From: a virus
Taxonomy: Duplodnaviria > Heunggongvirae > Uroviricota > Caudoviricetes
Length of the DNA: 64,000 nucleotides
Reading direction: 5' to 3' (one strand)
IMG/VR virus record: IMGVR_UViG_3300031414_000001
Location: 1 to 64,000 of that record
A program made the position numbers and the translations under genes. The notes under the pieces are model-generated. The model searched no databases and was not told the origin of the DNA. It was given only the letters and a program-made list of their open reading frames with translations. Below, one piece after another: positions 1-64,000 of the stretch. How positions within the stretch are numbered: position 1 is the first letter of the stretch; the number at the start of each line of letters is the position of its first letter.

Positions 1-107
1 GACAAATCCCGATTCCGTACAGTACGTACAAAATAGCGTACATAGTCCAGATAATCAGATGATACAGAACCTTTTTCCTCAAGAAACTCGATACATGACT
101 GAACATA
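1..107 (-). CDS. Partial hydrophobic (membrane) protein running off the window start
   Basis: ATG at 107 with upstream GAGG; reads MFSHVSSFLRKKVLYHLIIWTMYAILYVLYGIGIC... Confidence 0.5.
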
Positions 108-121
108 ATGCCTCGTTAAAT

Positions 122-340
122 TCATTGTTCGTTCAACTTCATTCGAGCGTTCCCAGGCGTTAGACCATACCTTGTAATGCTCGAATCCCGCTTTGAAAAT
201 GTATTCCTCTGGTACGTAACCAGACCATTTATCATTGATGTAAACGCAGTACTCGCTAACTGACGGATGCCAGTGAACGTATGTAGTACTCCACATAGCC
301 TCTGGAAATTCATCAGCAAGGAACTCAATGAAATCTTCAT
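122..340 (-). CDS. Hypothetical protein
   Basis: 72-aa ORF in the co-oriented minus-strand array; true start may be further upstream. Confidence 0.55.
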   Translation of the reverse strand: MKISLSSLLMNFQRLCGVLHTFTGIRQLASTAFTSMINGLVTYQRNTFSKRDSSITRYGLTPGNARMKLNEQ

Positions 341-397
341 TCAGATTCGGGTCTTTGCGTTCAAATTTGTGTTCACTTTGCCAGTTAGCGTTATCTG

Positions 398-670
398 TCA
401 TTTTATCAGGTCATCCATAAAAGAGCAATCATCTTTTTTCGGTGTTTCAACGATGACAATACCACCGTTATAATCTGGATGTTCTTCATTCCAGTATTCT
501 TCTAGCCAGTCTTCTTCTTCATAACAGTTATCAACATCGAACTTAATGTCAATACCACGATCAGCAAGAATCTTATTCACTTGACTAAGAACATATTCAG
601 CACTATCCCAAATAGAACGTGCGTACTCCATATCTTCATCAGTTACTTTGAAAGTCACTTCAGTACTCAT
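398..670 (-). CDS. Hypothetical acidic protein
   Basis: 90-aa ORF with GGAG RBS, overlaps upstream stop. Confidence 0.75.
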   Translation of the reverse strand: MSTEVTFKVTDEDMEYARSIWDSAEYVLSQVNKILADRGIDIKFDVDNCYEEEDWLEEYWNEEHPDYNGGIVIVETPKKDDCSFMDDLIK

Positions 671-897
671 TTAGTTGCTCCTGAATAGTCTTCTTCTTCA
701 TGCCATGAACATCCAACTTCACAATCACCATCTACTAGTGACCATTGGATACCATGAAGGATATTACCTTGTAATACATAGGATTCGCCCCATGCTTCTT
801 CTGAGCCGATATTAAGGCTTTCAATGAAACGCTCAAAAGCAATTTCCAGATCAACCTGATCACCTTCAGGTAAGGTCAAACAAATAGTTTTATTCAT
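667..897 (-). CDS. Hypothetical protein
   Basis: ORF 667..945; likely start MNKTICL at 897, coupled to the upstream stop. Confidence 0.65.
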   Translation of the reverse strand: MNKTICLTLPEGDQVDLEIAFERFIESLNIGSEEAWGESYVLQGNILHGIQWSLVDGDCEVGCSWHEEEDYSGATK

Positions 898-1123
898 TTT
901 CATCCGTTGGATAGTTATAGAACCCGTAGCCACTAACTTCTTCATATAGTTGTCGCATAATACGGCGATTTGCTTCTTGGCGGCGTTGGTGTTCTTCAGT
1001 GGTTTCTAATTCAAACTTGCCATCACGTACAATCATACCACGTAAACCGTGACCATGATCATAACGCATACACATACTTTCAATCAAACGAGCATCTGGC
1101 TCTTTTGGTAAATTGGGTTTCAT
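890..1123 (-). CDS. Hypothetical protein
   Basis: 77 aa, TAATG-coupled to the upstream ORF. Confidence 0.75.
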   Translation of the reverse strand: MKPNLPKEPDARLIESMCMRYDHGHGLRGMIVRDGKFELETTEEHQRRQEANRRIMRQLYEEVSGYGFYNYPTDENE

Positions 1124-1458
1124 TACTTGTCCTTTATTCCGTTAAGTACTTCCATGAACTTCTCCACGTCAGTACTTTCAAAGAATAAATGATCCCATTG
1201 AGTCATCTTCTGAAAGTGCCATGCTTCATCAGCAAGACGGGAGAAGTTAGGATATTTATAACGGCGTTTAGAACCCATCCAATCTTCAACCACAAGAAAA
1301 TCACTACCAGGAAAATAACGAAAATTCCAGCACTTGTTGTACAGAAATGTTAAATCAATTTCCACCATCTGAACACCATCTTCTTTCTTACAGCGTTCAG
1401 TTAGTTCATAAGCCAGATTTTCAGAACATTCAAAGTACTGTTCAATGAAATTTATCAT
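1123..1458 (-). CDS. Hypothetical protein
   Basis: 111 aa, ATGA-coupled. Confidence 0.75.
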   Translation of the reverse strand: MINFIEQYFECSENLAYELTERCKKEDGVQMVEIDLTFLYNKCWNFRYFPGSDFLVVEDWMGSKRRYKYPNFSRLADEAWHFQKMTQWDHLFFESTDVEKFMEVLNGIKDK

Positions 1459-2249
1459 AAGGATAACATCGCCTCAACGATAGGTGGAATCTCACATTCG
1501 TAGAATCCAGCACAATTGATGTTATTAACTTCCAGTACTTTAAAACCTTCGGAAGTCTCAGCGAAGTCCATCACAAAAGCATCAGCAGGAACCCATTTAG
1601 TACAGAGTTCTTCAGCTTTATCAATAATCTCTTGTGGAACTACTTTGTTAGTACAGAAGTTACCGCGAACCTTATACAAGGAATGTGAAACTACTTTACC
1701 TTTAACAATGAACAGCCGATACTCAGAAATAATCTCTTGAGCCTCAGCTAACAGTACTTCAAACTCAGGATCACCGTAGAATGAAAAGAACGCATCAACT
1801 TCTTGATTGAAGTTCAGTTGTTCAATAACACGAGCAACCATGACTTTAGTATCATGTACTGGACGAATAAAGATATTATTCCAACCTGGATTTTTAATTT
1901 CACCCATAGTGGTAAAGATACCATTTCCGTTCAGGAAGTTCTCTGAACCCCATTCACGCATCTGTACTTCAATGTTAAGATTCTCATTAATGAATCCACC
2001 AGGAGTATAACCTTCTTCAATCAATTGCTGAGCTAATGCATAGCTACCAAATGACATAGTAGGAATACTCTTATCAAAGTACTTCTCATAAGTAGCATCA
2101 CTGTAATCATCAACATCTTCTGGAACGAACATATTGATAAAAGGTACAGGTTTAACTGAAGTATGAGAGATGTTGTTTTGTACCATATATTCTTTCATGA
2201 TACGGAAACCATCTTCATTAAAGTACTTATCCATAATCAGAAAGTGCAT
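1455..2249 (-). CDS. ATP-grasp domain protein (DUF4343/R2K-like)
   Basis: Motifs FIRPVHDTK, EYRLFIVKGKVV, FVMDFAE, VLEVNNINCAGFY. Confidence 0.8.
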   Translation of the reverse strand: MHFLIMDKYFNEDGFRIMKEYMVQNNISHTSVKPVPFINMFVPEDVDDYSDATYEKYFDKSIPTMSFGSYALAQQLIEEGYTPGGFINENLNIEVQMREWGSENFLNGNGIFTTMGEIKNPGWNNIFIRPVHDTKVMVARVIEQLNFNQEVDAFFSFYGDPEFEVLLAEAQEIISEYRLFIVKGKVVSHSLYKVRGNFCTNKVVPQEIIDKAEELCTKWVPADAFVMDFAETSEGFKVLEVNNINCAGFYECEIPPIVEAMLSL

Positions 2250-2258
2250 ATTATGTCC

Positions 2259-2513
2259 TTAACAATTAGCGTGGAAGTAATCTAGATATTCGCGTGGTAT
2301 TTCAAAACCGCCATCGACTAGTGTACCATGACGTTCAGAAGTTAGTTCCAGTACTAAAAATACGTCACCAACTTTGATGCCATCTTTTAAAGCCCATCCA
2401 TATACTTCTAAGAATTCTGGATCGACCAACTTGAGTTTATCATAACCTGGTCGTAAATCAGACCAAGTATAACACCAAGTGAAATTAGTTGATTCGTTAA
2501 CACCATTACTCAT
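2259..2513 (-). CDS. Hypothetical protein
   Basis: ORF 2259..2543; likely start MSNGV at 2513 after GGAG. Confidence 0.6.
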   Translation of the reverse strand: MSNGVNESTNFTWCYTWSDLRPGYDKLKLVDPEFLEVYGWALKDGIKVGDVFLVLELTSERHGTLVDGGFEIPREYLDYFHANC

Positions 2514-2529
2514 ATAGTACTCCAGAAAT

Positions 2530-2554
2530 GAAAAAACCAGCATAAAGCTGGTTT
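2530..2554 (-). terminator. Intrinsic terminator
   Basis: AAACCAGC-TTTAT-GCTGGTTT followed by a U-run on the minus strand. Confidence 0.65.
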
Positions 2555-2564
2555 AGTTAATTAG

Positions 2565-2683
2565 TCGGGAATTGTGGACTCGAACCACATCTCACGGCTC
2601 CCTATGCAATTGTATTGGTTGCTGTGAAATTCCATTACAAGAATTTATGTTATACGGTGTGCTAACCCTTACACTAATTCCCG
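2565..2683 (-). ncRNA. tRNA-like RNA with a 68-nt insert replacing the anticodon/variable arms
   Basis: Acceptor CGGGAAT/ATTCCCG, D-arm GTGT-AAGGGTTA-GCAC, T-arm TGTGG-TTCGAGT-CCACA, 3' A-CTA; no canonical anticodon stem. Confidence 0.7.
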
Positions 2684-2685
2684 AT

Positions 2686-2706
2686 AAGTACCTTTCGGTA
2701 CTTTTT
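2686..2706. terminator. Hairpin (GAAA tetraloop on minus strand), terminator or processing site
   Basis: AAGTACC-GAAA-GGTACTT. Confidence 0.45.
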
Positions 2707-2889
2707 ATTGCCATTCTGTTTCTCGGCTGGCAAGCCTCAGAAAGTTAATTCGAGGACAGCTTTTGCTGTGATTTCATCATGGACGGCGATTTATAGTCTA
2801 GCCGGGACGACTCATGATAAAAATAAAACAAATGAAAAAAATCTGTAACGATTTATTCACCTACAACACGCCTACAAAGGTAACAGGAC

Positions 2890-3231
2890 TTACCAGGAGG
2901 AATTCTTTTTGTTGTAACCTTGACGGGTTACATATGCCATAAACAAGTCGAATGAGCCAATTTCTTCTTCATCCCATTGTCCTTCTAATCCATAACATGA
3001 ACAGTGACCACCATGAACTTCATAGAAGGTATCATTCAAGTTATTATAGAAGAAGACAGTGGCTGAACCGGAATAGTCTTCATACTCATAGAAAGCATAA
3101 ATTATTTGTTTGTCTGCCAGTACTTCAACATCAATACTAAACTGACCAGCAATGTCTTGTTTACAAGTAAACAATTCATGATAGATATTTGGAAAGATTT
3201 CTAAAACTTTAATACGTTGGTCTTCAGTCAT
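2890..3231 (-). CDS. Conserved phage hypothetical protein
   Basis: Likely start MTEDQ at 3231; motif YEYEDYSG...EVHGGHCSCYGLEGQW. Confidence 0.75.
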   Translation of the reverse strand: MTEDQRIKVLEIFPNIYHELFTCKQDIAGQFSIDVEVLADKQIIYAFYEYEDYSGSATVFFYNNLNDTFYEVHGGHCSCYGLEGQWDEEEIGSFDLFMAYVTRQGYNKKNSSW

Positions 3232-3421
3232 TCTTATTCTTTTCTTCGAGGAACTTCTTACGATGTTCAGTTGCTTTTTGTAGTACTTCAATCAGTTGAG
3301 GCCATGCCTCTGAACCAATATATAGAGTATCTTGACCATCTGATATTTCAACAGTTGGGAAGTTCTCATAGTACGTTGCTTCTAAATCTTCACTCAATTC
3401 TACTTCGTGACGGATATGCAT
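3224..3421 (-). CDS. Hypothetical protein
   Basis: Start MHIRHE at 3421; the longer ORF overlaps tRNA-Thr. Confidence 0.65.
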   Translation of the reverse strand: MHIRHEVELSEDLEATYYENFPTVEISDGQDTLYIGSEAWPQLIEVLQKATEHRKKFLEEKNKND

Positions 3422-3447
3422 TTCAGTACTCTCTCGTTTATGTTTAG

Positions 3448-3520
3448 TGCTCCAAGTAGGATTTGAACCCACGGCTTCCTCATTACAAGTGAGGCACTCT
3501 ACCAACTGAGTTATTGGAGC
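3448..3520 (-). tRNA. tRNA-Thr(TGT)
   Basis: GCTCCAA/TTGGAGC acceptor, CCTCA-CTTGTAA-TGAGG anticodon arm, GTGGG-TTCAAAT-CCTAC T-arm; 3' end A-CTA, CCA not encoded. Confidence 0.95.
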
Positions 3521-3567
3521 GGCGATACATTTTTATTTATCAATATAAAAACGTACCAAAAAGATTG

Positions 3568-3818
3568 TGCTGAAGAAGCGAAGCAACCAGACAACCGGAC
3601 AACCCAGCAACCGTACAATCAAGTTGAATGCCGTTTCCACAACCAAGCAAGTTATAATAACTGTTCAGTATAAACGGAGCAAACTCTTTAATAGTAGATT
3701 ACATAAATTGTAATTGACCATTCTTCATATGAGAAGATAAAAGCGTTGAAATTCATCAACGTGCTTCTTCAGCAAGGGGAGTTAGAGAGAGTAAGTTAAG
3801 CGACTACACTCTAACTCC
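3568..3818 (-). ncRNA. Candidate structured RNA downstream of the DIP1984-like gene
   Basis: 10-bp hairpin 3778-3787/3809-3818; 12-bp closing stem 3568-3579/3763-3774; internal hairpins; no ORF. Confidence 0.65.
3581..3620 (-). repeat. Five tandem 8-nt repeats (G(G/A)TTGYNN)
   Basis: Minus strand reads GATTGTAC GGTTGCTG GGTTGTCC GGTTGTCT GGTTGCTT. Confidence 0.85.
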
Positions 3819-3825
3819 AATTTGG

Positions 3826-4404: not shown

Positions 4405-4445
4405 ATTTGATTCTCCACAATTCGTTCAATTTCTTTCATGACTAC

Positions 4446-4474
4446 ATTATACCATAAAATTTTGAACCGTTTCA
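4446..4474 (-). promoter_or_regulatory. TG(A/G)AAC-class promoter
   Basis: TGAAAC-N17-TATAAT with extended -10 TGG. Confidence 0.7.
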
Positions 4475-4521
4475 AAATTTTTCACTTAATAGTGGATATT
4501 TCTCAATATCCACATTTGAAC

Positions 4522-5663: not shown

Positions 5664-5665
5664 AG

Positions 5666-5998: not shown

Positions 5999-6008
5999 TC
6001 TTGTACCA

Positions 6009-6035
6009 ATAAAAAAGACGCATTAAGCGTCTTTT
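6009..6035 (-). terminator. Intrinsic terminator
   Basis: AAAAGACGC-TTAAT-GCGTCTTTTTT. Confidence 0.7.
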
Positions 6036-6120
6036 GAAAGAAATTTACGTGCCATTTCGAAATCACGTTTGTATGTATCTGAACCATTTGGAATAATGGT
6101 ACGTAGATATTCCATCCAAC

Positions 6121-6600: not shown

Positions 6601-6630
6601 AGAAAAAGCCCTTTCGATTAAGATAGGGCT

Positions 6631-6659: not shown

Positions 6660-6666
6660 ATTTATT

Positions 6667-13574: not shown

Positions 13575-13613
13575 CTCGATTAATATGTCCAGTACTAGTA
13601 CTGGACTTTTGTA

Positions 13614-20889: not shown

Positions 20890-21130
20890 TTATTATCCTA
20901 TTTGATTTGCCATTCTTCGAATGTCAAAGAATTTTCGTCAGTACTCACTAATCGTTCGTACTTGACTCAATTCTATTTCTAAATTAAACATTATTCACTG
21001 ACGAGATTTGGGGAGGACATTTTCATCCCCCGCAGGGGAATGAAGACGTAAAAAAAGTACACAATTGTGTACTGAGTTTAATCTGACGATGATAGTCGTC
21101 GGAATCTGTCGAATTGTGAATTTCTCTGAA

Positions 21131-21516
21131 TTTTAGATACAACTTCATTGTACTATTTCTGGAGAACGAAAGCGGGTTGCTCGGTTTCTCTCTATCACAG
21201 TCATATGCAACGGTCGGAGTTTTATACATTGCTCCACTCAGTACTGAATCTATTCGACCAAATCAGTACCTGCCATAAATGGCTCCCTTAGCGTATTGGT
21301 AAGTGACCTTATATGTCTATCGAGGGAATATCTGTATGCTTAATGTATTCCTTTATAGTGCCGCATTGCCGTGAGTGGTACAAACTATGCCAACTTCTGA
21401 CGGGTTTCTTCTGCACTTCGAACTGATTGAACTTCTCAACTGTCCAATTACGTTTTCATCGGACTAGGGTTATACTCGTCAAGGACTATCCTTGTCAATC
21501 AGAGTTGTATCTAAAA
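21131..21516 (-). ncRNA. Candidate large structured non-coding RNA (~390 nt)
   Basis: 14-bp closing stem TTTTAGATACAACT/AGTTGTATCTAAAA, nested helices, upstream promoter, no credible ORF. Confidence 0.6.
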
Positions 21517-37742: not shown

Positions 37743-40112
37743 TTATTGAAATAGATTTGGCACTTTTAATGTTGCCGTAAAGTTTTCACGCTCATAACGA
37801 GCATTATCTTGAACATAGTAACTAAATTCTACCCCTGTAACTTCGAACTCATAATTCAATAACGCACCATGTTCATTATTCTGAATTAGTGTGTTGAAGA
37901 ATGTTTCACCCTGTCCTGGCTGTAAGTAAGCAACTACAATTCCAGGGAAGTATTCGGCTTGAATATTATCTTCGATATAAGGATGGTTCATGAAGCGTGG
38001 TACAGTATCTATCATTTCATCTGATAGACCACCAATAGCATCAACTACGATTCCACGGTTATTTAGATCTGTAGGGTCGGTTAGCAAGTTAACGGTATCT
38101 TCACCAAGAACTAGATATACGTTTTGACGTAATCCAAAGATTTCAGAAATGATTGAATTGCTATAATCAGTATACACAAGTGGATTCAAACTAAGACTTA
38201 CTTGAGTTCCTTCAGGGTGTACTTCTCTGTATAGTACATCATACAGTACGTTTCCTGCGTTGTCAAGGGCTGAACGAACTTTATAGTTACCAAGTACTAA
38301 ACGGAATGATCCGTCAGGCGTTGGAGCACCACTAGTTGTGTTCACTATACCATTACGAATGTTAGTAACAGTTTGTTTAATACCAGGCCAATTATGAGTT
38401 GTGTCCACATAGTTTTCTTTTAGAAGAATACGAGGAACTTTACGAACACCATAACGAGGATCAGAAGCACGATAGTACTGAGCTTGACTGAATGCTGTAG
38501 TACTGATGGTATTGAACCAAGTACGTTCCATTGTCAAAGATGGTTGAATATCAGCACTGATAAAGTTCTGACCGAAACCGCGAACAATTGTAATGTTGAA
38601 ACGTTGGGTTAATGATTTACCATTTTTTCCAGTTGCTACTACATCGAACTCTAATTTAATATCATCGTTCGCTGAGAAGTCTGTGCTTAAAGCATACGCA
38701 GTACCAATCATAAATCCATCAGCACTTAAATCTAATCCGTACTTACGAATATCATTCGGTGAAGTACTTTCATTGATTTCGTATGTGATTAAGTCAGAAC
38801 CACTGGCAACAATTTTAGGATACACAGTATGACCAAAATATTCACCTACGTGAATTGTACCTAAATTAGCATCAGTTTCAAATGAAATATCAGTACCAGT
38901 ATCCCCATTTAAGATAATACGGAATATTCTAGTATTGTTGATAATACCTGAACCTAATGATTCATTATAAATTCCTAAATCATACCATTTTGTAGCATCA
39001 TATGAAATTACCGGATTACCTTCAAATACATCTTCTGATACAACATAAGGATATATGGTAGTATCTTTTAATTGATATAAATGACCGCTGATTGGTACAT
39101 CATGAAAATCAGAAGTATCAGTTGGAGCAATCCAAGTTTGATAAGCACGGAAACGTTTACCGACATAATAAGCATCAGCTTCAGTACTGTAATAACGTTT
39201 AACTGAAACTACTCGAATTTTGATATAAGCATCAATTGGGTCTGAATCATAGAGCATAGTCTGAATAATCTGACCGTTGTTTCCATTGAATTTTAAGCCA
39301 GTATTAACTAAGTTGCCAGTACTGTCTTTAACAAGTAAAGGAACTTCTTCTAATAGACCATTACTTAAATCTGGAACTAAAATTGTTCCTGAACCAGTAA
39401 TATTAGTACTAGGTTTTTCTGAATCAAGAATAGTCAGTACTTCGTAAGCTGGCATGAATACATTAGTAGCACCGTTTATTGATTGACTTTTACCGAATGC
39501 TTGAACGAACAAGCGACTTTCAGCACCATAACCTACACCACCAATGGTGTATAGATTAGAACCATGAGTTGTTAATCCTGGTGTTAGCCAAATTTCGTTA
39601 GTGGTGTTATAATTCAAAGTACTTGAAGTTGTTCCGAGAACACCGCTCGGTAGCGTATTTGCTATTTGACCATCTAGCAACGTAATTACGTTGATACTGT
39701 CAATATTGAATGTTAATGATTCTGGACCATCCCATATTCCATCTTGTGGACATTCTATCTTAAAGTAATAAGCATCAATATAAGATACAGAACTTAAATC
39801 ATATGATTTAGTACTGAATTTTACTACATGCGTACCTTGAGTAGTGGATACTCCAGTTCCTGCGTTGCCAATTGGAACTAATGAAGAAGTACTTTCACCT
39901 ACACTAACTATAAAATCGCGTTCTTCTAAAGTCTCACCAGCACCGACGATGTTATAAGTAAATTCCAAGTACTGGTCATCAGTTAAAACATAAGTATTAT
40001 CGGTAGAAGTTGATTGACTCTTTTTCAAGCGTAGTCTAAAATAGGTGGTTTGTCCTTCTTGTATTGTATTGGTGTCAGCGATCAAATCCCATTGGGGTTC
40101 GAAGTTTGCCAT
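37743..40112 (-). CDS. Virion structural protein (baseplate/tail-associated, beta-rich)
   Basis: Thr/Ser/Gly-rich with Ig/cadherin-like segments (LGTIHVGE, GLDLSADG..IG); TAAATA at 40145-40150; start MANFE. Confidence 0.65.
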   Translation of the reverse strand: MANFEPQWDLIADTNTIQEGQTTYFRLRLKKSQSTSTDNTYVLTDDQYLEFTYNIVGAGETLEERDFIVSVGESTSSLVPIGNAGTGVSTTQGTHVVKFSTKSYDLSSVSYIDAYYFKIECPQDGIWDGPESLTFNIDSINVITLLDGQIANTLPSGVLGTTSSTLNYNTTNEIWLTPGLTTHGSNLYTIGGVGYGAESRLFVQAFGKSQSINGATNVFMPAYEVLTILDSEKPSTNITGSGTILVPDLSNGLLEEVPLLVKDSTGNLVNTGLKFNGNNGQIIQTMLYDSDPIDAYIKIRVVSVKRYYSTEADAYYVGKRFRAYQTWIAPTDTSDFHDVPISGHLYQLKDTTIYPYVVSEDVFEGNPVISYDATKWYDLGIYNESLGSGIINNTRIFRIILNGDTGTDISFETDANLGTIHVGEYFGHTVYPKIVASGSDLITYEINESTSPNDIRKYGLDLSADGFMIGTAYALSTDFSANDDIKLEFDVVATGKNGKSLTQRFNITIVRGFGQNFISADIQPSLTMERTWFNTISTTAFSQAQYYRASDPRYGVRKVPRILLKENYVDTTHNWPGIKQTVTNIRNGIVNTTSGAPTPDGSFRLVLGNYKVRSALDNAGNVLYDVLYREVHPEGTQVSLSLNPLVYTDYSNSIISEIFGLRQNVYLVLGEDTVNLLTDPTDLNNRGIVVDAIGGLSDEMIDTVPRFMNHPYIEDNIQAEYFPGIVVAYLQPGQGETFFNTLIQNNEHGALLNYEFEVTGVEFSYYVQDNARYERENFTATLKVPNLFQ

Positions 40113-40198
40113 ATCTAATCTCCAAAACATAAAAAGCTTTGTCGTATTTATTCTATGGGCTTAATTAAAAATAAAGGACGCCGAAGCGTCCTTAAAAA

Positions 40199-41614
40199 TT
40201 ATTCATCATCATCTTTATAGACGATGTTCATGTTACGAAGTTCTATGAGTTCTTCTTCGTAGATTTTCCAAATCTTGTCATGATTCTCTAGCAAATCATT
40301 GTATTCATCCATCTTCGCTAAGGCATCTTCAATTTCTTGATTTACCTTAACGTAGTTTTCTTTAGTCCAACGATACGCCGCGAAGTTCACGATGTTCTGT
40401 ACGTTTTCCTCGGATGCTTCAATTTCAGCATTCAATGAGGTTACAAAGTCAACAACTTCCGCACGGTTCTCAAATTCTTTAATCTTAACAGTCATGTCGT
40501 TTTCAAAACATTCTTTAACCAGAATCTTATAACGCACTTCTGCGTCAGCATCGGCTAGAAGTTTCTCATAACGCTTGATGTAGTATTTGAATCGGAACTC
40601 AACGAAGTCCGAGATTATATCTTGAACAGTGTTGTAACTTTTTACTTTTCCGTTTTCACCTAAAACATTGAGGGTATGTGCCAATTTTGTTGAAATGTCA
40701 AAATACTGAAGCACATCCATTTCTGACCATGAAGCCGAAAGACCACGTGGTAGTTTTATGGTAATGTCAACCTTACCAGAACTGTTATCATCGTAGCTAC
40801 GGATTTTACCTGAATCTTCCATTGCGATCAAGTCCTCAACGAATTTTTCTAGTTTCATACGTGGAGCTAGACCAGTAATACGAACAGTACTTGCATCGAT
40901 TACTTCAGCTTTACCGAAGAAAGTATACTTACCTTCGCCACGGTCTTCAACATAATCGTTCGCACCATAACTTGCGTAGTACGGCATCATTTCTAAAAGT
41001 TCTTCACCACGGATAGCACGGAGAGTGTTCTCAATGATTTCGTTCATACGATATGGGAAGATAAAACTTTTATACGCTGTCGCAGTACCATCAACGCCAA
41101 GTAGTGCTAATGGAATAATTGGTAGGAAGAACTTAGGTTCCATTGTAGTACCGTCATAGTTTTCCTGCATCGGTACAACATCCATATCACGAAGTACTAA
41201 AGCTTCGGTGAGTTTGGTTTTCTTCACATATGTATAACGTGGGCTTGCTGGTTCAGGGTTAACCTGAGTACCAAATCCACCACGCTTACCAATAAGTGGA
41301 TAGTTGTTCACAACTGGACTTGCTAGGTTCTGTAGAGTACCACTAGCAGAAGCATCACCATGAAGATAGATACCATCACTAATCATACGACCAGCACAAG
41401 ATACAGTTTTGATTTCACCACTTACTTTACTCAAAGTGAAGATAGCTTTACGCTGTGAGTTTTTGAAACCATCAATCCCAGGTAGAGCACGATCAAAAGT
41501 ACTCAAAGCATATTCTAGGGATGATTGGTTGATATAGTCTGAGCTACCATAGCCTAACAGAGTTAGAGCATTAGGTACAATCTCAGCTTGGGTTTTCTTT
41601 GTTGATTTACGCAT
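40199..41614 (-). CDS. Type IIA topoisomerase, GyrA/ParC-like subunit (T4 gp52-like)
   Basis: RALPGIDGFKNSQRK, YLHGDAS, catalytic ASPRYT. Confidence 0.95.
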   Translation of the reverse strand: MRKSTKKTQAEIVPNALTLLGYGSSDYINQSSLEYALSTFDRALPGIDGFKNSQRKAIFTLSKVSGEIKTVSCAGRMISDGIYLHGDASASGTLQNLASPVVNNYPLIGKRGGFGTQVNPEPASPRYTYVKKTKLTEALVLRDMDVVPMQENYDGTTMEPKFFLPIIPLALLGVDGTATAYKSFIFPYRMNEIIENTLRAIRGEELLEMMPYYASYGANDYVEDRGEGKYTFFGKAEVIDASTVRITGLAPRMKLEKFVEDLIAMEDSGKIRSYDDNSSGKVDITIKLPRGLSASWSEMDVLQYFDISTKLAHTLNVLGENGKVKSYNTVQDIISDFVEFRFKYYIKRYEKLLADADAEVRYKILVKECFENDMTVKIKEFENRAEVVDFVTSLNAEIEASEENVQNIVNFAAYRWTKENYVKVNQEIEDALAKMDEYNDLLENHDKIWKIYEEELIELRNMNIVYKDDDE

Positions 41615-41663
41615 TTCCTTTGCCTCTTTGCTAATACGGGGAACTCCTGTTCCCCACTAATAA

Positions 41664-43652
41664 TTATGCTGCTTCTTGCTCACGTGTCCAATCTTTACGG
41701 TCATCAGCACGTTCTTTGTTGAAGATCAAATCTAGGGTTTCTCCTAGTGATCCATCATCAGTAATCGCTACTGCTACACCATTGGATAGTGCGTCACGGA
41801 AGTTTGTTACTTCTAGAGTACCAAGACCTTTCGCACGTGTTGCTTTCCATCCTTTCCATTCTTCAGGATTGTATTCATGGACGTTATGACCATAGAAGTA
41901 CTTCGATTCTTTACCTTTCTCAAGGATGATGAACGGAGTCTTGAAGATATAAATGAATGGATCTTCTGGATCAGAGAATAACTCAGGCCAGAATTTGTAG
42001 AAGAAGTTAACCACAAGAGCACCGATGTTCTTACCATCTTCATCTTCGTCAGCACAAATGTATAACTTGCCGAAGTTCATGTTAGCACGAACGGCACGTT
42101 CACCTGGAACTAGATTCAATGATGCCATAATGTCATGTATCGCTGATGGTTTATCAGCAGTACCCATTAGGTCTTTAGTTTTCTCTTTACCGTTTACGTT
42201 CTGGATTTTACCACGTAGTGGAAGAATACCATGAATTTCAGAGTTCCTAGCAGCAGTCATTGAAGATACTGCGGAATCACCTTCTGCGATTAGTAGAATA
42301 CATTTAGAACGATCAGTACCGTTAGCATCACGCAATTTAGCAACTTTACCTTTCAGTAAACGTTTAGCCATCTTACGATCTTCATCGGCATCTTTCTTGT
42401 TTGTACGTTCAGCACAACGAGCATAAATTTCTTCTACCCAATCGTTATTTTTCTTAACGAGTTCAGCAAAGAATTCATCAGTCATTGCGTTCTGTACTGG
42501 TTTAATGACATTCTCATTAGTTAGCTTAGTTTTGATCTGAGAGTTGAATGTTGGAGTATTCATCTTAGTGACGTTATAAATCAACAAACCTTCTTCAATA
42601 TCAGAACGGTTAGGGGTCATTTTCTTTTGCTTAGATTTACGTTCTAGGGCTTTAATCACACCTAGTGCGAACTTCTGTTGGAAGGTATCTAAGTGAGTAC
42701 CACCTTCGAGGGATGGAGCGTTGTTAACAAGACCTTGCATATGTAGGTTCTTGCTAAGACCATCAACTACACCAGGGACAATATAGAAAGTACTGTCAAA
42801 GCCAGTTGTACCGTCTTCAACTTTCAATGTCATAGTGTTTTTGTGAGAAGCAAATAGACCTTTCTTCGGAACAACAATACGTTCACCATTCAAGAAAATC
42901 TTGTACGATGGGTTTGCTGCTGCGATTTCTTTCAGGATACTAAACACGAGTTCAAGTGGTAAAGTATGTACTTTGAATACTTCTTTACTGATTTTGAATC
43001 GTACTGTAGTACCAGTCTTTTCTGCTTGTACTTTACGAATACTTGGTTCATTAATTCCAAGTTCAGGGAACATTGCTGTACCTTCAGTGAACTTCTGAGT
43101 GAATTTATATGTACCATCATATTCAGAGTTGGCTTTATCGGTTTTGTACGGTTTACCTGCACGATGAATTTCGAGTTCAGCTTTCTCAGATACGATCATA
43201 ACTACTGAACCGCCTAAGCCGTTCATCCCGATAACGTTAGTACGTTCATCGTCGTTAAAGTTACGTCCAGTTTTCATTTCGGTTAGAACCATAGTACAGA
43301 CATGTTTCTGTGTTTCTGGTACATAGTCGATTGGAATACCACGACCGTTATCGCTAATTTCGAATTCAAGTTCATCTTGATTGTACTGGACTTTCAATAC
43401 TGGATCGCGTGTTCCAGCTTTAACGAATTCGTCCAATGAGTTATCCACGATTTCGCGGAAAGATGTTAGTAGGGCAGGAACCCAACCTAAGTTTTGCACG
43501 TTGAACCCTTCTTCTCCAAAAAGAAGTACAGGTTGTTCATGTTCTGATTTCGAACCCAAATACATTTCAGTACGGATACGAGCATGTTGATATTCAGTTA
43601 ATTGCTGTACACCATGTTCAGCGAGAACAGAACTTTTCTTTTCCTTTGCCAT
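41664..43652 (-). CDS. Type IIA topoisomerase, GyrB/ParE-like subunit (gp39+gp60 uninterrupted)
   Basis: EIVDNSLDE, DNGRGIP, GMNGLG, EGDSA, PLRGK, DEDEDG, KGLG; start MAKEK at 43652. Confidence 0.95.
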   Translation of the reverse strand: MAKEKKSSVLAEHGVQQLTEYQHARIRTEMYLGSKSEHEQPVLLFGEEGFNVQNLGWVPALLTSFREIVDNSLDEFVKAGTRDPVLKVQYNQDELEFEISDNGRGIPIDYVPETQKHVCTMVLTEMKTGRNFNDDERTNVIGMNGLGGSVVMIVSEKAELEIHRAGKPYKTDKANSEYDGTYKFTQKFTEGTAMFPELGINEPSIRKVQAEKTGTTVRFKISKEVFKVHTLPLELVFSILKEIAAANPSYKIFLNGERIVVPKKGLFASHKNTMTLKVEDGTTGFDSTFYIVPGVVDGLSKNLHMQGLVNNAPSLEGGTHLDTFQQKFALGVIKALERKSKQKKMTPNRSDIEEGLLIYNVTKMNTPTFNSQIKTKLTNENVIKPVQNAMTDEFFAELVKKNNDWVEEIYARCAERTNKKDADEDRKMAKRLLKGKVAKLRDANGTDRSKCILLIAEGDSAVSSMTAARNSEIHGILPLRGKIQNVNGKEKTKDLMGTADKPSAIHDIMASLNLVPGERAVRANMNFGKLYICADEDEDGKNIGALVVNFFYKFWPELFSDPEDPFIYIFKTPFIILEKGKESKYFYGHNVHEYNPEEWKGWKATRAKGLGTLEVTNFRDALSNGVAVAITDDGSLGETLDLIFNKERADDRKDWTREQEAA

Positions 43653-43683
43653 TTCAAATTCCTTTTTGTTTCTTAGCCATTGC

Positions 43684-43712
43684 ATTATAGCATAAATTGT
43701 TTCTTTGTTCCA
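43684..43712 (-). promoter_or_regulatory. TG(A/G)AAC-class promoter
   Basis: TGGAAC-N17-TATAAT, extended TGC. Confidence 0.7.
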
Positions 43713-56033: not shown

Positions 56034-56264
56034 TTATTTGCGGTTCTGACGACGAGACTTACGAGCAACTTTGTTCGCAGCACGGCGTTTAGATTTGATT
56101 TTACGTTTTTCTGCTACGTCAGAATCTTTCTTCATATAGTAGTTAGACAGACGAGCAATCATCTTACTGGTATATTCCATTTCTTCAGCAGTCATTTCGT
56201 ATCCGGTAACTTCTTCTGCTGCTTCCATGTTCTTTTCTACCATTTTGTTCAGTTCGTTGTTCAT
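56034..56264 (-). CDS. Small protein with basic C-terminal tail
   Basis: KRRAANKVARKSRRQNRK. Confidence 0.75.
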   Translation of the reverse strand: MNNELNKMVEKNMEAAEEVTGYEMTAEEMEYTSKMIARLSNYYMKKDSDVAEKRKIKSKRRAANKVARKSRRQNRK

Positions 56265-57689: not shown

Positions 57690-57698
57690 TGTATTTCC

Positions 57699-58472: not shown

Positions 58473-58517
58473 ATTGCATATCCGATAAAAATCCCCTCAC
58501 TTGGAGGGGATTTTATT

Positions 58518-60839
58518 TTAAATCTTACAGCTATCGCAATCGTCTTCTGCTTCCATAGGAGGAAGAAGTACTACAATACCTTTTTCTTTCTTTTCGCCTT
58601 CTAGTTTATCTAGATCTACTTCACCAGAACCATCGTTCGTGTTCATGTAGTACAAGTTCTTAAGTCCGTACTTGTAAGCTAATAGCAATTCTGTTAACAG
58701 CATATCCATAGATAACTTACCGTTAGGATAGTTAGCAGGGTTATAGCTGGTGTTAGCACTGATACTTTGGTCGATATATTTCTGTAGAACACCACAAATC
58801 TTAATATAACCTTCGTTGCTAGTCTGTTCCCAAAGTAGAGTGTACTTGTTCTTCAGTTTACCAATTTCTGGAACAACTTGTTTCAAGATACCATCTTTGG
58901 ATGCTTTAATTGAAACTAGGTTACGTGGTGGTTCAATACCGTTAGTACTGTTACTAATCTGTGCTGATGTTTCAGCAGGCATTAGAGCCATTGTTGTTGC
59001 GTTACGAATACCATGAATCGCAATCTCAGCACGTAGAGCTTCCCAATCCATCTTCAATTCAGTACCGACTAAATCATCAATACTTTTCTTGTAGTTGTCA
59101 ATTGGTAGAATACCTTGAGCATAACGTAGGTTTTCGAATTTCTCACAACGACCTTGTTCTTTTGCTAATTGTACTGATGATTTAATCAAATAGTACGACC
59201 ATGCTTCTGACCATTCGTTAATAGTACTGAGAGCACCGTCATCGTAGCGTAGGCCACGTTTAGCAAGGAAGTAAGCTAGATTGATGATTCCTACACCTAG
59301 TGGACGATAAGCCTTTGTAGCTCGTTCTGCGTGGATTACAGGGTATTCCTGATAATCTAGTAGAGCGTCCAACGCACGTACAGAAAGGTCACAAGCTTCT
59401 TCCATTTGGTCTGGAGTATCAAAGTTACCCCAATTGATTGCTGCTAGAGTACAAAGGCTAATTAGACCTTCTTCATCATCCTTCACATCTTCAAATGGAA
59501 TAGATGGCAGAGCAATCTCTTGACACAAGTTACTTTGTTCAATCGGAGCAACCGAAGGGTCGAACGGAGAGTGATCATTAACTAGGTCAATATTTTGAAC
59601 ATAGATACGACCAGTTTCAGTACGTTCAGTCATTAACTGAGTGAATACTTCTAGTGCTGGAAGTGTCTTTTTACGAATGCTTGGATCAGCTTCGTATTTT
59701 TGATAAAGTTTTTCAAATTTATCTTGATCGGCACAAAACGCTTCATACAATCCAGGAACATCACTTGGAGAGAAGAAAGTAATATTTTTACGTTGAATCA
59801 AACGTTGATAAAGAGTTTTGTTAATTTGGAAACAGTAATCCAACTGACGAACACGAGATACTTCAGTACCTTTGTTATTCTTCAGTACTACAAGATCTTC
59901 GAACTCATAGTGCCATAGTGGGAAGTGAACTGTTGCCGCTCCACCACGTACACCACCCTGAGAACAGGATTTAACAGTTTTAGCAACTGCGTGTAGGAAT
60001 GGAATCAAACCTGTGTGAACTGCGTCACCACCACGAATTTCAGAACCAACAGCACGGACACGACCATAGTTAACACCTAGTCCAGCTTTCTTAGAAATGT
60101 ACTTCATGATAGCACTATTACCAGCACTGATGCTGTCTAGACTATCACCAACGTTCATAACAACACAAGAACTGAATTGGCGTGTATTGGTACGAAGACC
60201 AGCCATAATTGGAGTTGGTAGAGAAATGTCGAAGTTACTAATCGCATCATAGAATTTCTTAACCCATTGAATACGGTTATTAGTATACTTCATGAATACG
60301 ATAGCAGCAATCATCATATATGCCATTTGCGGGGTTTCGAAGATTTGAGCTTCAACACCTTTCTTGGAACGGTTCTGTACTAGATACTTACCTTCCCATT
60401 GCTTCATAGCAACGAATGTGAATTTGTCATCACGTTTGTGTTTAATGTATTTTCCAAGTTCTTCTAGTTCTTGGGTAGTATACATGTCGAGAATTTCTGG
60501 ATCATATTTTCCGTTTTCAACTAATCCGGTAACATGATCTACGAATTTGATTGGCTCATAAGTTCCATATACTTGCTTACGTAGAGAATAGTTAATCAAT
60601 CTACCAGCGACATATTGGTAATTAGGAGTTTCTTCAGAAATGAGTTCTGAAGCGGCTTTGATTAGAATGTTATGAATGGTCTTAGTACTCATACCTTCAA
60701 AGAACTGAAGTTGAGAACGCATTTCAATTTCTGAAACAGAAACGCCAGTTAAACCTTCACACGCAAAAAATAAAATCTGATGAATTTTATCTAGATCTAG
60801 TGCTTCCTTAGCACCATTACGTTTAGTAACGTTAATCAT
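58518..60839 (-). CDS. nrdA: Ribonucleotide reductase class Ia alpha subunit with ATP cone
   Basis: VTKRNG ATP cone, PTPIMAG, QFSSC, SQGGVRGG, SNLCQEI, LCTL, MPAETS, C-terminal CDSCKI. Confidence 0.97.
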   Translation of the reverse strand: MINVTKRNGAKEALDLDKIHQILFFACEGLTGVSVSEIEMRSQLQFFEGMSTKTIHNILIKAASELISEETPNYQYVAGRLINYSLRKQVYGTYEPIKFVDHVTGLVENGKYDPEILDMYTTQELEELGKYIKHKRDDKFTFVAMKQWEGKYLVQNRSKKGVEAQIFETPQMAYMMIAAIVFMKYTNNRIQWVKKFYDAISNFDISLPTPIMAGLRTNTRQFSSCVVMNVGDSLDSISAGNSAIMKYISKKAGLGVNYGRVRAVGSEIRGGDAVHTGLIPFLHAVAKTVKSCSQGGVRGGAATVHFPLWHYEFEDLVVLKNNKGTEVSRVRQLDYCFQINKTLYQRLIQRKNITFFSPSDVPGLYEAFCADQDKFEKLYQKYEADPSIRKKTLPALEVFTQLMTERTETGRIYVQNIDLVNDHSPFDPSVAPIEQSNLCQEIALPSIPFEDVKDDEEGLISLCTLAAINWGNFDTPDQMEEACDLSVRALDALLDYQEYPVIHAERATKAYRPLGVGIINLAYFLAKRGLRYDDGALSTINEWSEAWSYYLIKSSVQLAKEQGRCEKFENLRYAQGILPIDNYKKSIDDLVGTELKMDWEALRAEIAIHGIRNATTMALMPAETSAQISNSTNGIEPPRNLVSIKASKDGILKQVVPEIGKLKNKYTLLWEQTSNEGYIKICGVLQKYIDQSISANTSYNPANYPNGKLSMDMLLTELLLAYKYGLKNLYYMNTNDGSGEVDLDKLEGEKKEKGIVVLLPPMEAEDDCDSCKI

Positions 60840-60881
60840 TATACATCCTTGTTGTTGTTTTTCTTAAAAATTGTGGTTCTT

Positions 60882-60889
60882 TATTTATA
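60882..60889 (-). promoter_or_regulatory. T4-type late promoter upstream of nrdA
   Basis: TATAAATA. Confidence 0.5.
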
Positions 60890-60914
60890 AGGGTCGAAAA
60901 AAGGTGGGAGCCTT

Positions 60915-61493
60915 TTAAATAGCATCCCACCCGCGAAGTATATACTCAACAGTAAAAGCTTCAGCACTATCATTAGATAGAGTGACAGCCATTCTGCTGG
61001 TTCCTGTGTCAAAGGCTGGATCTTGAAATTCGATCACTACTAGCCCTTCAGGTTGATTTGTGTTGTTTTGCTGAGCAATAAGTACTGTGCCAGCTTGAAC
61101 CACAAGTTGTACTGTGCCAGATTCTAGTAAAGTACTTCCAGTAGCATTACTATATCCAACGTAATCAATGAATAACCTTGATGTACTTTGTATGTTTACA
61201 GTTACTGAACCATTTGCTGGTACTGTAACCTTATATGGTTTGTTGATAAGTTCGTTAAGAATGCTCCAAGGTGTAAACTCAGTAAGAATTTCCACATTTT
61301 CCTTTCCACTATTTGGGGCGTTATCCCATGTTCTACCAGCAACCAATGAAGAAGGTTCAGAAGAACTTGGTAGGCCGATAAAACAGCGACCTACGTCAGT
61401 ACTAAATCCGATTTGTCCTTTTTCAAGAGCCAAAGGTAAGTCACGTTGTTTACCCATACGAACTTGCATCAAAGCAATTTCTTTTTGAGCCAT
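60915..61493 (-). CDS. Virion structural protein (fibre/baseplate N-terminal motif)
   Basis: QVRMG...DLP..L..GQIGFSTD.GR.FIG; TAAATA at 61523-61528. Confidence 0.65.
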   Translation of the reverse strand: MAQKEIALMQVRMGKQRDLPLALEKGQIGFSTDVGRCFIGLPSSSEPSSLVAGRTWDNAPNSGKENVEILTEFTPWSILNELINKPYKVTVPANGSVTVNIQSTSRLFIDYVGYSNATGSTLLESGTVQLVVQAGTVLIAQQNNTNQPEGLVVIEFQDPAFDTGTSRMAVTLSNDSAEAFTVEYILRGWDAI

Positions 61494-61521
61494 AACTAAA
61501 ATCTCCTATTAAAGTATAGAA

Positions 61522-62088
61522 TTATTTAGTGCTTTCGGCTTGAGCTTTAACATCAGCAATACGCTTTTCAATTAGCTCATTCACTTTTGAACCGTCAACT
61601 GATGAAAGAATAGCTGCTGGGACAGCGGTTTTCAAATGTTTTAGGAACGGAGCAAAAGATTTAAAATCTTTTTCATTCAGTGCTTGTACGATAATATCAA
61701 CATCATCTTGAGCACTTTCAGTACGAACAATCTGAACTTCATCTTCAGGAATAACCACTGAACTTTGAATTTCTTCAATGATAGCTTGTTGTTCTACTGT
61801 ATTTGTTTTATATTCTAGTACTGCTTCATCTACAGTACCGTCTTCTACGGTAGCAGATTCTTGTACCATTAAATCAGCAATTTCTTCAGAGATTTGCTGG
61901 ACAGTTTTACCGCCACGCATTTTATAATCTTTGATTGCTTGAATTAGTTTTACTGGAAGTGGTAGTACATCCAGTTCTGAATCGTCTTGTTTGATCAATT
62001 CATTAATATCGTAACCTTTAGCTTGTACTGCTTTGATTGCGAAAATATCTTGTTTCATTGCTCTTAATCCCATTTTACATTTCTCCAC
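61522..62088 (-). CDS. Hypothetical protein
   Basis: ORF; start probably at a downstream Met (MGLRAM or MKQD). Confidence 0.75.
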   Translation of the reverse strand: MEKCKMGLRAMKQDIFAIKAVQAKGYDINELIKQDDSELDVLPLPVKLIQAIKDYKMRGGKTVQQISEEIADLMVQESATVEDGTVDEAVLEYKTNTVEQQAIIEEIQSSVVIPEDEVQIVRTESAQDDVDIIVQALNEKDFKSFAPFLKHLKTAVPAAILSSVDGSKVNELIEKRIADVKAQAESTK

Positions 62089-62776
62089 GTTGAGCGTAAT
62101 ACATTTCGACTCTTTCTATCCACATATTGACAGCTTCATCAAAATCAGCACCCTCAATTACGAATTCTTGATATTCAAGATTCTCAGGGTCTTGACGAAC
62201 ACAAATAAAAATAACACCGCGATCAATCGTAGTGCCGTGTTGTTGATTATGTGCTAGTGCGTATGCTGCGATCTGAAGACGATAGTTTTCGATGTATTCC
62301 CACGTCTTAGGTTTACGGGAGTTTTTATAGTCCATTATACTAGGGATTCCATTATGTATTCCTACTAAGTCTGTTGTTCCCGCCCAAAGTCCTTCATAAT
62401 ATAAAGGTACTTCTTGACCCCATACTTCATTTATTTGAGGCCAGGCATTTGCCTGTATAACATCAGCCATATTACGAGCCAGTACTCTTATAGGCATTCC
62501 ACCTTTATGATCTGGATCACCAACTAATCTACGTTCTAAATTTTCATGCATGAACGTTCCGACTGTTGTAGCTTCTAATGTTATTTCGTTGGCTTTCTTT
62601 TCACCAACTGCGGCTCGCCATTTCTTCAATCCTTCATCATCAGAAGTGGCACTTAGTATTGTAGTCACGCTTGGCAGGTTTCCGCTTGGGGTAGAATAAA
62701 GGCGACCATCAGGGCCGCCTTCAATTCGTTCATAACCTGTATACGTGTACTTATTGACAATAGGTGGTATGTACAT
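62075..62776 (-). CDS. PD-(D/E)XK exonuclease (Cas4/RecB-like)
   Basis: LPSVTTIL, GTFMHE, E.PLY, AGTTD, IMDYKNS, Y.LQIAAY. Confidence 0.9.
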   Translation of the reverse strand: MYIPPIVNKYTYTGYERIEGGPDGRLYSTPSGNLPSVTTILSATSDDEGLKKWRAAVGEKKANEITLEATTVGTFMHENLERRLVGDPDHKGGMPIRVLARNMADVIQANAWPQINEVWGQEVPLYYEGLWAGTTDLVGIHNGIPSIMDYKNSRKPKTWEYIENYRLQIAAYALAHNQQHGTTIDRGVIFICVRQDPENLEYQEFVIEGADFDEAVNMWIERVEMYYAQRGEM

Positions 62777-62789
62777 CCTGTACTCCTAT

Positions 62790-62818
62790 ATTATAGCACA
62801 TGTTTTTAGTTTGTTTCA
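62790..62818 (-). promoter_or_regulatory. TG(A/G)AAC-class promoter
   Basis: TGAAAC-N17-TATAAT, extended TGC. Confidence 0.7.
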
Positions 62819-63151
62819 AAAATCTTGTTTTAAGTTGTTTGCTGCTGCTTTTGTTGCCATGTCCTCTACTTGTTCTTCAGAAGATTCAGCATTGTCACCA
62901 CTTGGAGTAGTATCATTGCCTTGTAGAGTAACTATGTCAGAGTTCGCATCTTGAACGAATGGTAGTTCATTCAGAATGTCCATCATGACGTTATAAGGAA
63001 CATCAATATTAGTACGCTTCTTAATCTCATTAATTAGAGATTGAACACTGATCTGTTCCCTGCCAGTGGCAATAAGAGACAGTGCGATAGTACTAATCAT
63101 GTTCCTAATATCTTTTCCTGGAGCATCCTCGGTTATTTGACTATAACGCAT
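62816..63151 (-). CDS. Conserved jumbo-phage protein (head region)
   Basis: MRYSQITE N-terminus; V..MATKAA C-terminus. Confidence 0.75.
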   Translation of the reverse strand: MRYSQITEDAPGKDIRNMISTIALSLIATGREQISVQSLINEIKKRTNIDVPYNVMMDILNELPFVQDANSDIVTLQGNDTTPSGDNAESSEEQVEDMATKAAANNLKQDF

Positions 63152-63163
63152 ATAACCCTCCGA

Positions 63164-63814
63164 TTATTTTAGGATCTTTAGAACCTTAGCGATTTTGTTT
63201 TCGTTTTCAGAAAGCCATTGGTTCATTTCTTTCTTAGAGTTGAAGTACTTATTACCTACAGTACCTTTAACACTTTCAAGTTGAATACCAATACGCTTAG
63301 GTTTAGCAGATTCTTTCATTTCGCGATCCATTGGAGTTGGTTCTGGTAGATCACCAGCGTCACCTAGTCCAGCATCATCTTCGAAATCAAAATCACCTTC
63401 TGGTGTATCTACATCTAGAGATACATCATCAGATCCAAAATCATCTGCACCTAGATCAGCAACATCTGGAGAACTTGTAATGTCACCAGTTAGTTTTAGA
63501 GTTTCAGTACTGATCTTGTCTTTAACATCCATAATTGTTTTAACAGCATGATCTAGAAGACCACTAATGTTATTACGGAATGATTCTGCTGCTTCAACGC
63601 CGTGTTCAGCTTTAATACGGTCTAGTAGTGGACCTAGTACGTCAACACCCATGTTGTTGATTACTTCAGCTTGACGTTGTAGTTTATCTACGATTTCACC
63701 CTTAACTGCTAGTACAATTTCAGCTTTCTCAATATTTGATTCATTTAGTTGAACAAAATTTAGAGCTTCAACGCGACTGCCGGATTCCATCATTTTTTGA
63801 AATTGTTTTGACAT
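63164..63814 (-). CDS. Probable prohead core/scaffold-associated protein
   Basis: LNESNIEKAEIVLA motif, acidic linker, REMKES; TAAATA at 63847-63852. Confidence 0.6.
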   Translation of the reverse strand: MSKQFQKMMESGSRVEALNFVQLNESNIEKAEIVLAVKGEIVDKLQRQAEVINNMGVDVLGPLLDRIKAEHGVEAAESFRNNISGLLDHAVKTIMDVKDKISTETLKLTGDITSSPDVADLGADDFGSDDVSLDVDTPEGDFDFEDDAGLGDAGDLPEPTPMDREMKESAKPKRIGIQLESVKGTVGNKYFNSKKEMNQWLSENENKIAKVLKILK

Positions 63815-63850
63815 TATTATTTCCTTATAAATGAAATTTATATCCTTATT

Positions 63851-64000
63851 TAGTTATGAATCCTTCTTCTTTTAAGAAGTTCAATACTCTTGCTTTCAAG
63901 TCTTGGGCTTTTTTCTTGTGTTCAGCTATAACTGTATCAAGTTCCTGAGCCTTGTCGTACTTAGATTCTTTAAGTACATTTTGACGTTCTTTGGCAGCTT
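63851..64000 (-). CDS. Partial CDS (C-terminus), Lys/Glu-rich
   Basis: Minus-strand reading ...KAAKERQNVLKESKY...LLKKKDS ending near 63855; boundaries approximate. Confidence 0.5.

Follow-up and report, generated by a model that had tools for sequence, protein, structure and literature searches.

The stretch of DNA studied here (the window) comprises 64,000 bp, positions 1–64000 of the 370,971 bp virus record IMGVR_UViG_3300031414_000001, which as a whole is referred to as the genome, and our subject is the palindromic hexamer AGTACT that is scattered over it in great excess. Nearly all genes are encoded on the minus strand. By its sequence, the virus is a RaK2-like (RaK2/GAP32/CBB-like) jumbo myovirus. 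Among named phages, Erwinia phage Kaldavass (~92% identity over a test stretch) and Xanthomonas phage XbC2 (90%) are closest to it, followed by Pectobacterium phage CBB and Cronobacter phage GAP32 (~80%) and, further out, by Eneladusvirus, Asteriusvirus and Munch-like phages. A first-pass annotation, made from the letters alone, had drawn attention to the word by counting it in two stretches of the window; all 24 positions it listed are exact (12 in 1–2600 and 12 in 38293–39973), and its estimate of ~36% GC is to be replaced by 38.1%.

AGTACT occurs 177 times in the window (2.77/kb), compared with 21.1 copies expected from base composition (observed/expected ratio, O/E, 8.4) and with 19.05 ± 4.31 copies in dinucleotide-preserving shuffles, the largest of which held 28; the strong enrichment that had been claimed is, thus, borne out. 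No other palindrome is enriched in the window, the next-highest being TCATGA with an O/E of 2.2. Over the genome, 1166 copies are present (3.14/kb; O/E 9.5), with 21 to 64 of them in every 10 kb bin. The 170 window copies lying within open reading frames (ORFs) fall into all three frames, as the annotation had stated—77 read AGT-ACT, 68 xxA-GTA-CTx and 25 xAG-TAC-Txx. Its further statement that the word recurs in intergenic DNA holds for the genome, with 3.1/kb in ORFs and 3.8/kb in gaps, but hardly for the window, where only 7 of the 177 copies lie outside ORFs (1.2/kb); the main source of the strong genome-wide intergenic enrichment is a promoter-rich region beyond the window.

Since AGT, ACT, GTA and TAC are common codons in an AT-rich genome, the excess might be artefactual, a product of codon usage, of amino-acid composition or of dinucleotide bias. 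As a codon null model, synonymous codons were shuffled within each gene, keeping the proteins and the codon usage of each gene. Under this model, the 170 in-ORF copies of the window compare with 38.2 ± 5.8 (z 22.7; maximum 54 in 300 shuffles) and the 1020 in-ORF copies of the genome with 243.6 ± 13.6 (z 57), in line with the earlier view that protein coding does not suffice as a cause. When all hexamers of the genome are ranked by this null, AGTACT comes first, and the words that follow it directly are extensions of AGTACT itself; the octamer CAGTACTG is found 177 times versus 19.9 ± 3.9. Neither of the two outcomes that the annotation had named as speaking against its proposal is, thus, seen: the excess persists under the codon shuffle, and no unrelated hexamer is comparable. 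With dinucleotide and codon shuffles failing by 20–57 standard deviations, and with AGTACT enriched outside ORFs genome-wide and conserved at synonymous positions, an artefact is practically out of the question, and we reject it on the codon shuffles of both window and genome.

The preference for the word extends to how, and even where, amino acids are placed. In the genome, 514 of 769 Ser-Thr dipeptides (67%) are written as AGTACT, versus 14.5% expected by codon usage, as are 59% of the x-Val-Leu opportunities (355/602) and 48% of those of the form (K/Q/E)-Tyr-(F/L/S/Y/C/W) (151/316). The dipeptides themselves are over-represented, with O/E values of 1.51 for ST, 1.32 for VL, 1.43 for QY and 1.24 for KY; the values for the reversed dipeptides are 1.00 (TS), 0.99 (LV), 1.11 (YQ) and 0.95 (YK). 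For comparison at the level of individual sites, the genome was aligned with those of Kaldavass and XbC2 (89% identity) and of CBB (78%). Third codon positions within AGTACT change at 0.28–0.53 times the rate seen in the same codons elsewhere, so that the conservation at synonymous positions which the annotation had asked to be checked is found; against Kaldavass and XbC2, this constraint covers all six motif positions (p 2e-3 to 7e-14). Put the other way round, synonymous conservation at the motif positions exceeds that of the same codons outside the motif 2–3.5-fold, and the per-branch loss of AGTACT sites is 0.11–0.125 as opposed to 0.20–0.23 for all hexamers. On the basis of the codon shuffle, the synonymous-site constraint, the dipeptide skew and the conservation throughout a phage clade described below, it is well supported that AGTACT is a genome-wide cis-word maintained by selection on the DNA at each of its six positions, as the annotation had surmised in calling it a positively selected cis-mark.

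Individual copies of the word come and go, whereas its density stays at ~3/kb. Among three near-equidistant, ~89%-identical genomes, 702 AGTACT sites are common to all, 273 are present in one genome only and 281 are missing from one only; single presences and single absences being about equal, gains balance losses. At 78% identity, the position is conserved for just 43–50% of the sites, and still the totals remain at 850–1313 per genome. A search for spacing periodicity, as recommended by the annotation, turned up nothing: spacing is near-Poisson (coefficient of variation 0.93), the largest gap of 2220 bp matches a random process, and there is no helical or regular spacing, the sole periodicity being the 3-nt coding period. 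The metagene profile is flat save for dips where the ribosome-binding site and the stop codon lie, by which a positional role relative to genes is rejected. Density is equal across core, partly shared and accessory genes (2.9–3.3/kb), by which an amelioration gradient is rejected as well. It is, hence, the density along the genome that matters and not where single copies sit, with sites turning over at equilibrium.

Such a pattern of gain and loss invites the idea of a neutral drive, in which motif-directed repair or a gene-conversion bias makes and keeps AGTACT without any function. Very-short-patch (VSP) repair, which raises CCWGG in E. coli, is a precedent, a drive of this kind can mimic synonymous-site selection, and the top one-step gains are indeed the transitions AGTATT>AGTACT and AATACT>AGTACT (nine each). 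However, gains are seen at all six positions, transversions included, and the commonest losses are still C>T (18) and G>A (26), implying that deamination products are not preferentially repaired. Nor is any one-mismatch neighbour drained—AATACT is worst with a z of −3.5, AGTATT has −2.0, and many neighbours are enriched—and no methyltransferase tracks the trait. Given undepleted neighbours and gains at all positions, VSP-type repair drive is rejected, and neutral drive in general is, in our judgement, very unlikely.

The trait has a sharp phylogenetic boundary. Counted next to the control word TCATGA, which is AGTACT reversed, the word reaches 850–1313 copies versus 137–200 in 12 enterobacterial RaK2-like genomes, while seven relatives or comparison phages, Vibrio phage R11Z and the T4-like Klebsiella phage KMI9 among them, are without the trait, with counts at or below the control (Table 1). 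AGTACT richness belongs to one phage clade. In the chromosome of E. coli K-12, 400 AGTACT copies in 4.64 Mb stand against 1147 of TCATGA, making the word 36 times sparser than in the phage, and no CAGTACTG cluster is present. The comparison with related jumbo phages and hosts that had been proposed, therefore, sets 12 RaK2-like genomes sharing the trait apart from PA5oct, XacN1 and E. coli K-12, all of which are poor in the word. Two of the poor phages, both related jumbo phages, shun it, XacN1 having no AGTACT in 385 kb and PA5oct an O/E of 0.15; in XacN1, 25 palindromes have zero copies.

Given this distribution, the word might be read by a host factor of the Enterobacterales, a DNA-binding protein or defence nuclease that the phage recruits, titrates or evades. 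The trait is confined to enterobacterial phages, with Pseudomonas, Xanthomonas, Agrobacterium and Ralstonia jumbo phages lacking it, and AGTACT is rare in E. coli K-12. Furthermore, the octamer Chi (GCTGGTGG), the word of the host RecBCD enzyme, is enriched in the same genomes (18–41 copies versus 1–3.5 expected), which means that AGTACT-rich genomes do adopt host words. Speaking against a host factor is Klebsiella phage KMI9, whose lack of enrichment shows that infecting enterobacteria is not by itself enough to bring about the trait. Also SlmA, the one host protein known for an AGTACT-centred site, is excluded. This protein reads GTRAGYRCTYAC, with G1, T2, A4 and G5 being required (PMC3020112). 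Full SlmA-type sites number 0–1 per genome among 850–1235 AGTACT cores, and half flanks of the SBS type (38 versus 74 expected) are depleted 2–3-fold across the phages; SlmA recruitment is, hence, rejected, and the decoy for a host defence protein considered in the annotation fails for SlmA, the sole protein tried. To our knowledge, no host protein prefers CAGTACTG, and we regard a host factor as rather unlikely.

As for Chi itself, the genome holds 41 copies versus ~3.4 by composition. On the coding strand, 26 copies compare with 9.1 ± 2.5 under the codon shuffle. AGTACT-rich relatives contain 18–41 copies each and PA5oct a single one.

Around AGTACT, the preferred flanks are C at −1 and G at +1, while G is seldom found at −1. 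This flank rule is partly background, G being uncommon before AG in these genomes as a rule; the C excess at −1 that is specific to the motif is 1.3–2-fold, strong in RaK2, TH47 and the studied genome and weak in both CBB and Munch. For these reasons, the selected unit is the hexamer AGTACT, with CAGTACTG as its favoured form.

A small-gene region at genome 263–281 kb contains recurring promoter modules in which the word has a fixed place. In the first type, located at genome 267–276 kb and represented by five modules, AGTACTTGC(T/G)T is followed by a short spacer and by AGTACT(G/T)TATAAT, so that one copy lies before a TGCTT-type box and another before a TATAAT-type −10 element, 20–21 bp apart. 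The second type reads TTGACA-N17-TATTCTatcAGTACTG and has AGTACT just downstream of the −10 element in several promoters. Going by sequence layout, this placement looks like that of operators. A MotA search gave no signal, with controls equally silent. The same region is promoter-rich with many small genes, and it also features repeated terminator-promoter cassettes with GGGG-TTGAC...CCCC hairpins, blocks of A/T-rich TTTATAAATTAAA that precede the AGTACTTGC promoters by ~20 nt, as well as long hairpins with CAGTACTG in their stems.

Table 1. Features of the window and of the genome (window coordinates unless otherwise indicated; strand in brackets), and copy numbers of AGTACT and TCATGA in compared phage genomes.
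Feature or phage	Coordinates	AGTACT	TCATGA	Remark
AGTACT-dense stretch	1–2600	12		4.6/kb; at 248, 285, 662, 1145, 1171, 1434, 1534, 1753, 2078, 2222, 2350, 2516
AGTACT outside ATG-called ORFs	3425–3430			reads GAGAG-AGTACT-GAA-ATG, flanked by a Shine-Dalgarno-like GAGAG on one side and by the start codon of a minus-strand gene on the other
Chi octamer	12914; 57895			window copies
Abutting AGTACT pair	13588–13605			copies at 13591 and 13597, giving the longer palindrome CCAGTACTAGTACTGG
Intergenic AGTACT	20940–20945			minus-strand gene 50 nt downstream of the copy
Intergenic AGTACT, form CAGTACTG	21240–21245			10 nt upstream of a minus-strand gene start
795-aa ORF	37743–40130 (−)			Kaldavass and CBB orthologues annotated as virion structural proteins
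AGTACT-dense stretch	38280–39975	12		inside the 795-aa ORF
Topoisomerase II (T4-type)	40199–43685			
76-aa basic protein	56037–56264 (−)			clade-specific core protein
Cas4-like PD-(D/E)XK nuclease	62075–62776 (−)			
N4/N6 methyltransferase	genome 192256–193149 (−)			beta class
Promoter-rich region	genome 263000–281500			outside the window
90-aa basic protein	genome 269972–270244 (−)			L209:9575-9844
C5-cytosine methyltransferase	genome 367175–368035 (−)			small
N4/N6 methyltransferase orthologue match, Kaldavass	PQ464595 294923–295789			one in-frame TAA
Kaldavass		1114	174	
XbC2		1105	186	
CBB		1235	187	
GAP32		1011	169	
BF		1072	152	
Yen9-04		1008	137	
Hallingskeid		1313	200	
Munch		850	149	
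WPEC5		1122	143	
RaK2		937	142	
TH47		917	139	
PA5oct (MK797984)		15	40	without the trait
Atu_ph07		25	82	without the trait
XacN1 (AP018399)		0	127	without the trait
RsoM2USA		62	176	without the trait
phiM9		39	67	without the trait
Vibrio phage R11Z		73	116	without the trait
Klebsiella T4-like phage KMI9		27	66	without the trait

AGTACT is the ScaI site, and it could be the target of a covalent modification that labels or shields phage DNA. The genome does encode two candidate enzymes, a beta-class N4/N6 methyltransferase, the closest solved relative of which is the N4-cytosine enzyme M.PvuII, and a small C5-cytosine methyltransferase; for the AGTACT-rich phage RaK2, modified DNA has been described (PMC3622015). 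The N4/N6 enzyme is absent, however, from the AGTACT-rich phages Hallingskeid, Munch, WPEC5, RaK2 and TH47 and the C5 enzyme from Munch, so that no recognisable methyltransferase tracks the trait; a Dam enzyme of the D12 class was not found in the genome. As neither enzyme is present in all AGTACT-rich relatives, both are rejected as the clade-wide cause. In addition, protection of sites gives no reason for their nine-fold multiplication. The methylation-based self-mark listed in the annotation is, thereby, weakened, and we consider any covalent mark quite unlikely. The Kaldavass match to the N4/N6 enzyme contains an in-frame stop and may be a broken or mis-assembled orthologue.

Alternatively, AGTACT could be the preferred site of a symmetric DNA-transaction enzyme of the phage, for example a topoisomerase II that cuts with a GTAC stagger of 4 bases, or a nicking enzyme for clamp loading or priming; with sites this dense, the 370 kb genome would be handled faster and the enzyme would be steered towards phage DNA. 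Such an enzyme would be suited by a palindrome that has GTAC at its centre and is needed everywhere and not at particular places, and the phage has its own topoisomerase II. Homologues of the latter are, however, also found in AGTACT-poor relatives, and the fixed positions in promoters are left unexplained, making this possibility an improbable one. The Cas4-like nuclease of the window, annotated in relatives as exonuclease, type II restriction-like enzyme or Cas4, is not tied to the trait, because it is also kept in AGTACT-poor PA5oct and RsoM2USA.

The explanation we favour, with a probability of roughly 40%, is that a symmetric DNA-binding protein encoded by the phage clade reads AGTACT, a palindrome pointing to a dimeric reader of double-stranded DNA. 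Such a protein would bind as a dimer to its sites on double-stranded phage DNA, with the paired copies 20–21 bp apart around promoters serving as operators, and the density of sites along the genome would allow it to coat or organise phage DNA or to recognise it as opposed to host DNA. This last step of coating or identity we purely infer; an ordinary transcription factor, for its part, needs no ~1000 intragenic sites, which weighs against the reading.

The search for candidate readers tells against it, too. By phyletic profile, 178 ORFs are core to six AGTACT-rich genomes, 86 of which have no match in PA5oct, RsoM2USA and XacN1; screening 40 small ones of these 86 with Pfam and 10 small basic ones with PHROGs revealed no sequence-specific DNA-binding domain. 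No TetR or HU protein is present in the genome, nor is a convincing Xre-type helix-turn-helix (HTH) protein, the matches being absent or below threshold. Two basic proteins were considered and rejected as readers. The 90-aa protein is kept in all AGTACT-rich genomes, but has the fold of a ParE/RelE-like toxin (its feature score to ParE_like clusters is 0.94, its TM score 0.76). The 76-aa protein combines an acidic N-terminal half with a C-terminal tail of nearly all Lys/Arg; this tail is unspecific, and the protein may be a non-specific nucleic-acid binder. The site for a phage DNA-organising protein, one of the mechanisms listed in the annotation, is therefore retained as the best guess among them, although no such protein was found.

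A bolder version, which we hold to be doubtful, is that the density of the word constitutes a self/non-self code for unmodified phage DNA, by which a clade protein would steer transcription, nuclease protection or compaction. If true, the code would be a sequence-based functional counterpart of the hydroxymethylcytosine of phage T4.

Several other words are strongly biased in these genomes. Palindromes are purged to an extreme degree: of the 64 possible hexamer palindromes, 30 are missing altogether from the window and 26 from the whole 371 kb genome. GCGC is completely missing from the studied genome, Kaldavass, XbC2, CBB, RaK2, TH47 and Munch. TGCA has an O/E of 0.27–0.31 in the studied window, Kaldavass and XbC2 and of 1.5–1.9 in CBB, GAP32, BF, Yen9-04, Hallingskeid, Munch and WPEC5; this lineage-specific avoidance suggests recent, host-specific restriction pressure. 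Within genes, the codon shuffle shows strong avoidance of TATTTA (14 versus 151) and TAAATA (56 versus 178), which fits a tendency to keep out accidental T4-type late promoters (TATAAATA); avoidance extends to AAAAAA and GATATC.

A full-text literature search found no published description of an AGTACT signature in phages or jumbo phages, or of CAGTACTG, and the word goes unmentioned in the RaK2 and CBB papers. New in this study are the per-position synonymous test, the balance of gains and losses, the exclusion of both methyltransferases by their distribution and of SlmA by numbers, the sharp phylogenetic limit of the trait and a corrected flank rule. Loss of short palindromes is what one expects of phages, yet this clade, while purging them, drives one to ~1000 copies, under a pressure that bends the choice of codons and the order of amino acids in hundreds of proteins. 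This implies a strong DNA-protein interaction that is central to a widespread group of jumbo phages, several members of which are studied for biocontrol. In practical terms, AGTACT is a simple clade diagnostic and calls for caution with codon-based or k-mer-based host prediction.

Among known systems, the closest likeness is to HIP1 (GCGATCGC) and other cyanobacterial highly iterated palindromes (HIP), which are over-written in genes and spacers, with synonymous-site selection and site turnover. AGTACT displays two of the features by which HIP-type words are recognised, namely over-representation in coding and non-coding DNA and selection beyond codon usage; it is, likewise, a short palindrome in many-fold excess with selection at synonymous sites and turnover. 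HIP1 differs in being another sequence on a cellular chromosome, whereas AGTACT is a hexamer in a phage genome, and the methyltransferase association proposed for HIP is not seen for AGTACT, neither phage methyltransferase tracking the trait.

Chi and the DNA uptake sequences DUS and USS resemble AGTACT as over-represented identity words whose density distinguishes DNAs for a protein machine. They are, however, asymmetric and orientation-dependent, with known readers, while AGTACT is palindromic and ~10 times denser than Chi in E. coli; the Chi-like site suggested by the annotation, therefore, does not fit. The SlmA sites of E. coli nucleoid occlusion (GTGAGTACTCAC) share with the phage word a dispersed palindrome with central AGTACT and belong to a dimeric HTH protein of the host group. 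SlmA requires G1 and T2, followed by a purine in position 3 (PMC3020112). The phage sites, in contrast, favour C at that position.

By analogy, the genome-coating DNA-binding proteins SPO1 TF1 and phi29 p6 and the hydroxymethylcytosine self-mark of T4 may follow the same logic as proposed here, in which a phage sets apart and organises its own DNA over the whole genome and thereby controls early promoters. The TF1 and T4 systems depend on a modified base, and the sequence specificity of p6 is low; the AGTACT mark, on the other hand, would be an ordinary sequence word, in a genome without a HU/TF1 homologue. Finally, restriction-site avoidance is extreme in the very same genomes, and AGTACT runs the opposite way.

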